DNA of 37,899 nt from Omnitrophica bacterium RIFCSPLOWO2_01_FULL_50_24. Its GTDB lineage: Bacteria > Omnitrophota > Omnitrophia > Omnitrophales > Danuiimicrobiaceae. The stretch lies in contig MHFO01000064.1 in assembly GCA_001804225.1 (NCBI GenBank), positions 1 through 37,899 of the forward strand, in the 5' to 3' direction. The notes under the pieces were generated by a model. The model was not told where the DNA came from, ran no database searches, and was given only the letters and a program-made list of their open reading frames with translations. Below are positions 589 to 2,314 of the stretch, in pieces. The position numbers and the translations under genes were made by a program. Positions within the stretch are counted from its first letter, which is position 1; the number at the start of each line of letters is the position of its first letter.

Positions 589-1029
589 TTAGGAAAGTTC
601 GGTTACTTTCTCTGGATCCGAAAAATCGTTTACTTTGGTTTCAAGCCAGTAATTATAGGCGTAATCGAGTGCTCGAAATTTATCAACTGGGTCCATCATC
701 AGAAAGGATACACCATAATCCGTCCCTTGATCTCGACCGGAACAGGACTTGCGCCAAACTACTTTTCCCGTCGTCCGGATCGGTTGTGTATCGTCAGGCA
801 CATGGATCACAAGATCCACCATTTCTCCCTCTTTCATCAAACCGATGGTATTGACTTTGATGCCTTCGCGAGATAGATCTTTGGTGAGTCCGGACCCTTT
901 AATGCTTTTGGAATCCCGTGACCGAAAATGGACGTTCATAAAAGCGTCAAAACGCTTAAATCTACGTTTTTCCTTCCCCATTTTCTTACCCTTTCTCTCG
1001 GTTTTCATTCTCTTATATTCTCCGGTCAA
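589..1029 (-). CDS. PilZ domain protein (predicted c-di-GMP receptor)
   Basis: RRFKR (RxxxR) is followed by DLSREG (D/NxSxxG), the two c-di-GMP-binding motifs of PilZ. The N-terminus is Lys-rich. A 134-nt AT-rich gap lies upstream. Confidence 0.75.
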   Translation of the reverse strand: MTGEYKRMKTERKGKKMGKEKRRFKRFDAFMNVHFRSRDSKSIKGSGLTKDLSREGIKVNTIGLMKEGEMVDLVIHVPDDTQPIRTTGKVVWRKSCSGRDQGTDYGVSFLMMDPVDKFRALDYAYNYWLETKVNDFSDPEKVTELS

Positions 1030-1163
1030 TGAGTTAAACCTGCGTGCGCAATTTAAAGCCCGTTCCGCCTCAAAACGTGTAACAATTACCTAAGTAGTTG
1101 TAGACATTGAAGTTACATATACTTCTTTTAACGCTAAAGAAAGTATAACACATAATCTTAAAA

Positions 1164-1439
1164 TTACAAGCCACCACTTAAAACTTCATCCGGCTTTTTT
1201 AAATTCCGGCTTAAAGCAGCAAGCGTTTCCCGGACTTCGGGGTCTCTCATCAATGCTGTAAACTCCTGATGAGCCATCAACTTAAACATATTTTTTTCTT
1301 CAACCGCTTTCTTAAATGCAGCATCGTTCATCAGCTGCTGAACTTTAGGATTTGCAAGAAACTTTTTGAAATTTTCATCCCTTGCCACCTTTAAGAAATC
1401 GTCAAAATGACCGAAGAAATTCCCAAAAGGAGCCGTCAT
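1164..1439 (-). CDS. Hypothetical 91-aa all-helical protein with internal NP/DP-x4-LM-type repeats
   Basis: The ORF starts 11 nt after the yajQ stop. Sequence is FKKFLANPKVQQLMNDAAFKKAVEE...AHQEFTALMRDPEVRETL. I recognise no enzymatic motif. Confidence 0.5.
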   Translation of the reverse strand: MTAPFGNFFGHFDDFLKVARDENFKKFLANPKVQQLMNDAAFKKAVEEKNMFKLMAHQEFTALMRDPEVRETLAALSRNLKKPDEVLSGGL

Positions 1440-1450
1440 CGAACTTTTTG

Positions 1451-1948
1451 TTACCTATAGTTGACAAACTGAAGGGCAACGGAAAAATTTGCCGCACGCA
1501 ACGTATGAATAACGGTTTGCAAATCATCTTTACTTTTCCCGGAAACACGAACGGAATCGCCCTGTATGGTTGATTGAACTTTTAACTTTAATGCTTTAAT
1601 CCTTTTCACAATCTCTTTTGCTTCCTCCTGAGGAATTCCTTGAACCACTGATCCTGACTGTCGAACCATTTGATCAAGAGCTCGTTCCACCGCTCCAAAT
1701 TTTATCGCCTTTAAGGGCACGCCGCGTTTGGCGCACTTAGCGAACAACATGTCGATGATGCTTTTCAAGCGCAAATCGTTATCGGCTAAAATGGAGATGG
1801 CCTTTTCTTTACGATCAAAAGTCAATTCGCTCTTGCTGCCTTTAAAGTCATAGCGAGTCTGCATTTCTTTTACCACCTGATTCACGGCGTTGTCTAGTTC
1901 CTGCAGATCTACAGAAGATGCAATATCGAAGGAAGACTCTTGAGGCAT
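1451..1948 (-). CDS. yajQ: YajQ family (UPF0234) nucleotide / cyclic-di-GMP-binding protein
   Basis: Collinear with E. coli YajQ over its full length: SFDI.S.VDLQE..NAV.....E...RYDFKG at the N-terminus and LKLKVQSTIQGDSVRVSGKSKDDLQ near the C-terminus. Length is 165 aa. Confidence 0.9.
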   Translation of the reverse strand: MPQESSFDIASSVDLQELDNAVNQVVKEMQTRYDFKGSKSELTFDRKEKAISILADNDLRLKSIIDMLFAKCAKRGVPLKAIKFGAVERALDQMVRQSGSVVQGIPQEEAKEIVKRIKALKLKVQSTIQGDSVRVSGKSKDDLQTVIHTLRAANFSVALQFVNYR

Positions 1949-1963
1949 TTAGAAATAGATTCT

Positions 1964-2314
1964 CTACGAGTGGCTTTGAACGTATGAATGGATTTGGTCT
2001 TTGGCTTCTGGGTCTAGCTTCAGAAACTCAATGCCGATGTCATAGGACACCTTGTGCGAAACGGGTTCTTGGCTTCTCACAAGCCAAGCGATGCGTCCGT
2101 TGCAACGAATGGGCGATTGATCACTCAATAAATCAAGTTCAAGACGTACCGTGGATAACTTTTCGAGCTGTTGGCTTAGAACCACACACGTCCCTGAATA
2201 ACTTAAGTTTTTGGTTTTCGTTCGAATCACAGACTTATCATCCTTCACAATTCGGATGCCTAAGCTTGCTTCGATACGGGGAAAATTTCTTTGATTGATA
2301 CCCGGCCAGGGCAT
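1964..2314 (-). CDS. PilZ domain protein (single-domain, predicted c-di-GMP receptor)
   Basis: QRNFPR (RxxxR) plus NLSYSG (D/NxSxxG). At 116 aa it is the typical stand-alone PilZ size. Its stop lies 15 nt before the yajQ start. Confidence 0.75.
   Translation of the reverse strand: MPWPGINQRNFPRIEASLGIRIVKDDKSVIRTKTKNLSYSGTCVVLSQQLEKLSTVRLELDLLSDQSPIRCNGRIAWLVRSQEPVSHKVSYDIGIEFLKLDPEAKDQIHSYVQSHS

Follow-up and report, generated by a model that had tools for sequence, protein, structure and literature searches.

The closest described relatives of the genes considered here are effectors of cyclic di-GMP (c-di-GMP), a second messenger. They include the PilZ proteins MapZ/PA4608 of Pseudomonas aeruginosa and DgrA of Caulobacter, the PilZ domains of Bacillus subtilis MotI, Escherichia coli YcgR and Alg44, and members of the YajQ family such as XC_3703 of Xanthomonas, CdgL of Lysobacter and STM0435 of Salmonella. 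For PilZ proteins of a single domain, the C-terminal motif is the known partner-binding element (10.1101/2020.02.11.943704). YajQ (DUF520) proteins are widespread and their cellular role is still poorly understood; the characterised members act via LysR-type regulators or on flagellar synthesis (PMC4199771, PMC6988422, PMC10978029). Here, we examine a locus of the Omnitrophica bacterium RIFCSPLOWO2_01_FULL_50_24 in which two stand-alone PilZ genes (PilZ-116 and PilZ-130) flank a yajQ gene, directly downstream of a gene for a bitopic protein with a SPOR domain (SPOR273). The locus opens a 37,899-nucleotide (nt) stretch of DNA, referred to throughout as the window, which is contig C64 of a 1.2-Mb assembly that is 83% complete.

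All components of the locus belong to known families. Judged from sequence comparison and predicted structures, they are most safely read as a c-di-GMP effector module that is built on an ancient tandem pair of single-domain PilZ proteins and probably acts on the envelope; the chance that such a module has an envelope-directed output via the SPOR protein is about even. Remodelling of the cell envelope or export would be the most likely result, with septation as one possibility among these. An envelope output is suggested by the neighbours of the PilZ genes, which are envelope proteins in every class: SPOR proteins here, and a TIGR03015 ATPase and a TIGR04073 protein elsewhere.

The genes lie on the minus strand, in the order SPOR273 (2338-3123), PilZ-116 (1964-2314), yajQ (1451-1948), a helical accessory open reading frame (orf91; 1164-1439) and PilZ-130 (589-981). 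The gaps given in an earlier reading of the letters alone (the sequence-only reading) are correct as quoted, namely 23 nt between the SPOR gene and PilZ-116, 15 nt between PilZ-116 and yajQ, 11 nt between yajQ and orf91, and 134 nt between orf91 and the last gene, which it called PilZ-146. SPOR273, PilZ-116, YajQ and, in this genome, orf91 thus form one tightly spaced run. Two start codons require correction. By comparison with its relatives, the true start of PilZ-146 is almost certainly ATG 981 (130 amino acids) and not the upstream TTG at 1029, because its orthologues are 130 amino acids long and begin MxKERRKFKRFD behind an AAGGAGG-type ribosome-binding site. The non-coding gap before PilZ-130 is therefore 182 nt, and it holds a conserved promoter. 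Similarly, the SPOR gene most likely starts at GTG 3123 (261 amino acids), replacing the 273-amino-acid reading frame from TTG 3159; this GTG is 4 nt past the stop codon of the upstream GNAT gene and six bases past AAGGAG. In the relatives, start codons were picked by script.

Both PilZ proteins are single-domain proteins that score above the Pfam cut-off of 22.5 bits (PF07238; 55.8 bits for PilZ-116 and 50.7 bits for PilZ-130), and both were also recovered by a PilZ profile scan of the whole genome. As the sequence-only reading had stated, each carries an intact RxxxR and [D/N]xSxxG: QRNFPR (R9-R13) and NLSYSG in PilZ-116, RRFKR and DLSREG in PilZ-130. Both motif pairs line up with RRQYVR and NISAGG of MotI, the structure of which was solved with c-di-GMP. 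RxxxR is kept in 78/78 PilZ-116 and 84/84 PilZ-130 orthologues. Across 25 orthologues of PilZ-116, R9, R13, N36, G41 and W77 are invariant, and the orthologues of PilZ-130 share an invariant R-x-F-K-R-F-D and D-x-x-R-x-G. PilZ-130 also ends in an invariant C-terminal helix, DPVDKFRxLDYAYNxWLETKVNDFxDPE, which includes the remarkable invariant stretch D-P-x-D-K-F-R-x-L-D-x-A-Y-N-x-W-L-E.

For PilZ-116, profile and fold searches were required to see the similarity to solved PilZ structures. A search of the PDB with the single PilZ-116 sequence gave MotI as its best match, with an expectation value (E) of 0.13 that is not significant. AlphaFold2 models (predicted local distance difference test, pLDDT, of 82.5 for PilZ-116 and 78.0 for PilZ-130) both contain six strands and a C-terminal helix, which in PilZ-130 spans residues 98-120. 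The top Foldseek matches of PilZ-116 are the PilZ domains of Alg44, MotI and YcgR with c-di-GMP, and those of PilZ-130 are likewise c-di-GMP-bound PilZ domains; across the two models, E is 2e-6 to 9e-6 against MotI and Alg44, and YcgR and MrkH are matched too. As far as sequence and models go, both proteins thus share their fold with PilZ domains that bind c-di-GMP, as well as the RxxxR and [D/N]x(S)xxG elements. With MapZ/PA4608, DgrA and the PilZ domains of MotI, YcgR and Alg44 they have in common the six-stranded barrel with its C-terminal helix, the N-terminal RxxxR, the [D/N]xSxxG motif and a conserved barrel Trp; like MapZ and DgrA they are small stand-alone proteins, presumably acting via a bound partner. 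However, their identity to known PilZ proteins is only 13-24%. The C-terminal helix of PilZ-130 (DKFRxLDYAYNxWLETKVNDF) is class-specific and is not seen in solved PilZ proteins. Unlike in the known PilZ adaptors, the motif serine is often Gly or Cys in Omnitrophota orthologues, and the genes do not lie beside flagellar or chemotaxis genes.

The YajQ-family identity proposed by the sequence-only reading also holds. The protein is a full-length match to Pfam DUF520 (PF04461; 201.7 bits) and scores 192.9 bits against NF003819, 'YajQ family cyclic di-GMP-binding protein' (equivalog cut-off 146). Its closest solved relative is XC_3703 (5B7W; E 2.3e-34). In Salmonella STM0435, residues R33, R137 and D138 shift on c-di-GMP binding, and position 33 has been reported as R or K only (PMC10978029). 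The aligned residues in the window are K36, K140 and D141. Among the window sequence and 29 relatives, these positions hold K/R in 30/30, K/R in 30/30 and D in 28/30. Judged by this alignment, the basic/basic/acidic triad with which STM0435 contacts c-di-GMP is retained in YajQ. In this respect, and in being a full-length DUF520 protein, it resembles XC_3703, CdgL and STM0435; unlike those effectors, it has Lys instead of Arg at both basic positions. The genomic setting differs as well. In the class to which the window belongs, and unlike for the known YajQ effectors, yajQ lies just downstream of a PilZ gene, with a median gap of 10 nt, and behind a SPOR gene. There is no LysR-type gene among the open reading frames of the locus.

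The arrangement is not a matter of chance, since it recurs in about 75 distinct genomes. A PilZ-130 profile retrieved 80 loci from public genomes, and all phylum-labelled records among them are Omnitrophota/Omnitrophica. The order SPOR-PilZ116-YajQ is kept in the ~75 distinct genomes of the window's class, GNAT-SPOR-PilZ116-YajQ-(orf91)-PilZ130-GlpK occurs in 29/29 fetched loci, and yajQ was found in 40/41 relatives. The linkage to a SPOR gene is therefore conserved across the class. Over a longer range, lepA-lepB-SPOR220-SBP-GNAT-SPOR273-PilZ116-YajQ-PilZ130 is near-universal in the 80 loci, where SPOR220 stands for a second bitopic SPOR protein and SBP for a small basic protein. This synteny block stops exactly after PilZ-130, and glpK comes next in about half of the loci. 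Among ~100 genomes sampled from the class, all except six yielded the full-length PilZ-130 family, including its tail, at E 1e-45 or better; in other classes, matches reach E 1.7e-28 at most.

Spacing was measured over 87 distinct loci. The gap from the SPOR gene to PilZ-116 has a median of 10 nt (n=77), with 20 overlaps and 69/77 gaps of 30 nt or less. Between PilZ-116 and yajQ the median is again 10 nt (n=73), and 72/73 gaps are at most 30 nt, start/stop overlaps included. The gap from yajQ to the second PilZ gene has a median of 253.5 nt (n=74) and is never below 145 nt. In addition, the spacer before PilZ-130 holds a putative, near-consensus sigma-70 promoter (1142-1171, minus strand), which came from a promoter scan match and a comparison of related spacers. 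Read from 1171 to 1142, it consists of a -35 element CTTGTAA that overlaps the stop codon of orf91, an N16 spacer and TATACT; the last two spacer bases are TG, which gives an extended -10 element (TGTTATACT). The motif TTGNNN-N13-15-TGNTANNNT is found in 73/74 distinct yajQ-to-PilZ spacers (shuffles: mean 2.1, maximum 6), and in a comparative scan the remaining spacers of the block essentially lacked it. The 1.2-Mb genome as a whole contains just eight sites of comparable quality, one of which precedes rpsO. The promoter was singled out by the comparative analysis alone: in a generic promoter/terminator scan, matches were no more frequent than in shuffles.

Because the spacer is always at least 145 nt long and the promoter recurs in 73/74 cases, PilZ-130 appears to be transcribed separately. 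The architecture would then be (SBP-GNAT-)SPOR-PilZ116-YajQ(-orf91), followed by PilZ-130 as its own, probably strongly transcribed, unit. A riboswitch or leader RNA upstream of PilZ-130 was considered and rejected: Rfam returned nothing at E up to 1 (window positions 1-6000), and the ~150-nt leader folds no better than shuffled sequences (z = 0.29).

The genes further upstream in the block are the GNAT acetyltransferase (3128-3649, minus strand; Pfam Acetyltransf_1, 56.4 bits), which is the upstream member of the tight run, the small basic protein (3667-3975, minus strand; TIGR04137, NCBIfam 63.4 bits, cut-off 50), SPOR220 (220 amino acids; 4070-4732, minus strand) and then lepB and lepA, upstream of the second SPOR gene in the same minus-strand array. 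TIGR04137 was described for Chlamydiae/Verrucomicrobia and occurs throughout Omnitrophota, always with the GNAT gene next, ~20 nt away (median 20 nt in 43 loci); the GNAT gene is a block member phylum-wide.

A sample of 20 loci from 11 families of other Omnitrophota classes extends the comparison beyond the class. In these classes, SPOR220 holds the same relative position and heads a phylum-wide SPOR-SBP-GNAT...PilZ-PilZ block. In 14/20 loci, SPOR220-SBP-GNAT is followed by a divergently transcribed gene for a PEP-CTERM-type ATPase (323-328 bits against TIGR03015, cut-off 324.5) with a small bitopic partner. Next come a PilZ-116-like gene and, in many cases, a gene for a TIGR04073 protein (exported and exosortase-associated; 101-104 bits), then a PilZ-130-like gene and one that encodes a zinc-ribbon protein (e.g. 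L142:3418-6630; loci L123-L142). The PilZ-130-like protein keeps a related C-terminal helix. That is, the window's class and these PEP-CTERM/exosortase neighbourhoods have in common an orthologous PilZ pair downstream of the same SPOR220-SBP-GNAT genes; the slots filled by the TIGR03015 ATPase with its bitopic partner, the TIGR04073 protein and the zinc-ribbon protein in other classes are filled by a SPOR protein and YajQ in the window's class. The arrangement suggests that the PilZ pair was linked ancestrally to an envelope system of the exosortase type.

On this comparative evidence, the tandem PilZ pair and its place behind SPOR220-SBP-GNAT read as ancient, and the links to SPOR273 and YajQ as innovations of the window's class. 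In 15/20 other-class genomes, yajQ lies elsewhere, for example directly after a typA-like gene or near sucCD; in this class, therefore, the gene moved in between the two PilZ genes and has stayed there. We also considered a general YajQ-PilZ neighbourhood across the phylum and rejected it, as a PilZ gene lies within 4 kb at 1/14 other-class yajQ loci. The YajQ-PilZ link is therefore specific to the class, apart from a single additional arrangement of independent origin. In a family of another class, f22 (loci L145-L149), yajQ starts ~0-5 nt after a gene for a ~607-amino-acid GTPase that is typA/bipA-like by eye, which is a different conserved partnership for the YajQ family.

The genome as a whole can, by its gene content, make and degrade c-di-GMP. 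It encodes six GGDEF domains, two of them with an intact GGEEF (one in a GAF-GGDEF protein, the other in a membrane sensor-GGDEF protein), so the diguanylate cyclases that a c-di-GMP reading calls for are present. In addition, there are two GGDEF-EAL proteins, one GGDEF-HD-GYP protein (on contig C11) with HDIGK and HHHEWFDGKGYP, a third HD-GYP-type gene and six PilZ domains. A REC-GGDEF-MshEN protein (C57:5316-6791, plus strand) has a degenerate GGDEF (GGDDF) and represents a further type of c-di-GMP receptor.

The envelope side of the reading rests on the SPOR proteins. Both pass the Pfam SPOR (PF05036) cut-off of 21 bits, with 29.7 bits for SPOR273 and 35.4 bits for SPOR220, and both have a single hydrophobic segment ahead of the C-terminal SPOR domain. 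In an alignment of 80 orthologues, SPOR273 consists of a cytoplasmic N-tail with the motif LNEKEIQERLYGHY, one transmembrane segment, a linker and the SPOR domain. The tail motif can be written L-[NST]-E-[KR]-[ED]-I-Q-x-[RKQ]-L-Y-G (window 3040-3123, minus strand); it has no family assignment and occurs in 57/110 own-class loci as well as in family f22 of another class. In another class, a SPOR-less transmembrane protein at the same position (L123:3542-4075) carries this motif at its N-terminus too, as LSEKDIQKQLYG. The nearest described counterparts of SPOR273 are FtsN, DedD and DamX of E. coli, with which it has in common an N-in bitopic topology and, behind a disordered linker in the periplasm, a SPOR domain at the C-terminus; in DamX there is a cytoplasmic tail as well, of ~100 amino acids. 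Sequence similarity is confined to the SPOR domain, and the LxEKEIQxRLYG tail motif is lineage-specific. Within the library searched, no paper connects PilZ with SPOR domains.

How might such a module work? As the level of c-di-GMP rises, each small protein would bind it. Binding would order the N-terminal RxxxR loop and reposition the C-terminal helix, as in MapZ-type adaptors, and the protein would then engage a partner. Going by gene order, PilZ-116 (and perhaps YajQ) would most likely pair with the N-terminal, cytoplasmic tail of the SPOR protein, whose gene lies just upstream; the signal would in this way be relayed to SPOR273, which is predicted to bind denuded peptidoglycan of the envelope. 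For PilZ-130, a different partner, just as conserved, is probable, given its invariant C-terminal helix and its separate, strong predicted expression. For YajQ, independent genomic support for a c-di-GMP link comes from the move of its gene into the PilZ pair, where it has since stayed at a near-zero distance (~10 nt) from the PilZ gene ahead of it. This is the strongest new evidence that YajQ takes part in c-di-GMP signalling, perhaps with PilZ-116 directly. PilZ-116 is thus a concrete, testable partner candidate for YajQ.

Several observations weigh against this module. Some of them favour inherited synteny without shared function, in which the PilZ pair and YajQ would be c-di-GMP/nucleotide receptors with targets encoded elsewhere (e.g. 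PEP-CTERM/exosortase-type export, pili, lipid salvage or translation factors) and the SPOR gene would be a mere neighbour in a frozen, dense core chromosome. Gene order in this class is frozen over the whole 10-gene block from lepA to PilZ, and it is conserved in nearly all 80 loci, so the signalling genes are not singled out by it; that genes lie side by side at short distances therefore says little about shared function. The links to SPOR273 and YajQ are class-specific, not phylum-wide. In other classes, a PEP-CTERM-type ATPase and an exosortase-associated protein are found there instead (the PilZ pair flanks TIGR04073 and faces the divergently transcribed TIGR03015 ATPase), and yajQ sits behind a typA-like gene or sucCD. 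Moreover, genus g31 of the class has both PilZ genes without yajQ, and the N-tail motif of SPOR273, the proposed docking site, is absent from about half of the class loci. On the other hand, it speaks against mere inheritance that yajQ moved into the pair and then stayed ~10 nt from PilZ-116 in 72/73 genomes, with overlaps. Mere inheritance also sits poorly with a block that ends exactly after PilZ-130, beyond which glpK follows in about half of the loci only, and with the fact that the genome's own TIGR03015-like ATPase lies on another contig, with no PilZ gene nearby. Taken together, we regard inherited synteny as somewhat unlikely.

Other observations bear on whether all three proteins bind c-di-GMP. 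PilZ-116 could be a non-binding or weakly binding adaptor, like the Xanthomonas PilZ protein in the FimX-PilZ-PilB chain, and YajQ a general nucleotide/RNA binder, which would leave PilZ-130 as the only true c-di-GMP sensor. In 75/78 orthologues of PilZ-116, the motif has Gly in place of the serine ([DN]xGxxG), and the single-sequence match of PilZ-116 to MotI is weak, as described above. In PilZ-130, the serine is Cys in 32/84 orthologues (DxCxxG), and DxAxxG or NxTxxG occurs in a further 4/84. As far as the motifs tell, some members of the family may thus bind c-di-GMP poorly or no longer at all. Nevertheless, the motif D/N and G are retained in both sets of orthologues despite the serine changes, RxxxR and the conserved Trp are invariant in PilZ-116 orthologues too, and the window copy is one of only three among the 78 with the canonical Ser. 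Non-binding PilZ clusters, by comparison, typically have no such motifs at all (10.1101/2020.02.11.943704). As to YajQ, proteins of this family such as E. coli YajQ and Haemophilus influenzae HI1034 bind ATP, GTP and tRNA too. STM0435 mutants in the contact residues still bind c-di-GMP measurably, with dissociation constants of 15-33 uM (PMC10978029), and in another class yajQ lies beside typA (by eye), a translation GTPase gene. However, the window protein scores as an NCBIfam equivalog of the c-di-GMP-binding family. A module with PilZ-130 as its sole sensor is, in our judgement, unlikely.

The sequence-only reading went further than an envelope output, in that it placed c-di-GMP effectors beside division genes and proposed control of septation or envelope growth. 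A conserved effector cluster beside a SPOR envelope protein does hold up. The septation step goes beyond the evidence, because the block is frozen, the PilZ pair lies beside PEP-CTERM/exosortase genes elsewhere, a SPOR domain with a membrane anchor is not an FtsN, and the HD-GYP protein of the window is probably catalytically dead. The same reading had the run follow directly from two FtsN-like SPOR genes. Both SPOR domains are genuine, but only one SPOR gene adjoins PilZ-116, the second being separated from it by the GNAT and small basic protein genes, and the 'FtsN-like' label comes from the layout of membrane anchor and SPOR domain alone. The 261-amino-acid protein matches no NCBIfam family, and Pfam gives SPOR only. 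The essential periplasmic helix and the FtsA-binding tail of FtsN were not identified in it, these motifs being too short to recognise at such a distance. Nothing marks either SPOR protein as FtsN, which counts against septation as the output.

The wider division context cited in support was an HD-GYP protein and orn attached to the division and cell wall (dcw) cluster, and it fares unevenly. Orn is a genuine oligoribonuclease (16104-16676, minus strand; NF003765, 244.4 bits, cut-off 106), the last gene after ftsQ-ftsA-maf. The GAF-HD-GYP protein (31453-33012, minus strand; Pfam HD_5, 131.5 bits), encoded upstream of murE, has an intact HHERFDGKGYP but IDAGQ in place of the catalytic HDxGK (its C11 paralogue has HDIGK). 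It is therefore probably not a hydrolase, and may instead be a degenerate receptor-type HD-GYP protein rather than a phosphodiesterase.

Control of septation is possible, its basis being the SPOR domain, operon logic and the apparent lack of FtsZ. In the run ftsQ-ftsA-maf-orn, FtsA is present (17274-18491; TIGR01174, 190 bits), and next to it come maf and orn, not ftsZ. No match to FtsZ (TIGR00065) was obtained in 81 Omnitrophota genomes (that of the window and 80 others, each at least 90% complete), while 13/14 control genomes score. Published statements on FtsZ in Omnitrophota are uncertain or imply its presence: a 2016 review left the question undecided (PMC5147048), and a 2025 paper groups the phylum with those conserving dcw genes (PMC12283558). 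Two large studies of Omnitrophota genomes make no mention of PilZ, c-di-GMP or FtsZ. It is because no FtsZ was found in the 81 genomes sampled that the septation idea is notable, and it can be put in concrete terms. PilZ-116 loaded with c-di-GMP, together with YajQ, would dock on the LxEKEIQxRLYG tail and gate peptidoglycan remodelling at the division site of an FtsA-bearing, apparently FtsZ-less phylum. We consider both this version and true divisome control in general very unlikely. If it were true, the locus would be a second-messenger-controlled part of an FtsZ-independent divisome, and would provide the first defined set of cellular YajQ partners outside transcription.

The effector-module reading has consequences short of this. 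Omnitrophota are uncultured and ultra-small, and the locus, together with the absence of FtsZ from the 81 sampled genomes, supplies candidate genes for the point at which signalling meets the envelope. Even if the SPOR link proved coincidental, there would still be a new PilZ subfamily, marked by a distinctive and invariant helix at the C-terminus, together with a consensus promoter that is among the strongest of the genome.

At the margins of the locus, the minus-strand array in the first 5 kb of the window also includes glpK (1-495), which is truncated at the window edge. Between yajQ and PilZ-130, orf91 encodes a helical protein with a weak match to the STI1/HOP DP-like family (Pfam STI1-HOP_DP, 30.9 bits, cut-off 29.1) and two similar repeats of the NPxVQxLMxDxxF type. 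We considered orf91 as a core component and rejected this, as it is present in only 16/87 distinct loci, always directly 3' of yajQ; it is an accessory gene. Four loci (L035, L036, L082 and L122) contain an extra 139-amino-acid gene between orf91 and the second PilZ gene, which resembles YjbQ/UPF0047 by eye (...GSTGGLTTIEYEPGL...HDGNGHSH); in these loci, the conserved promoter is found ~500 nt upstream of the PilZ start.

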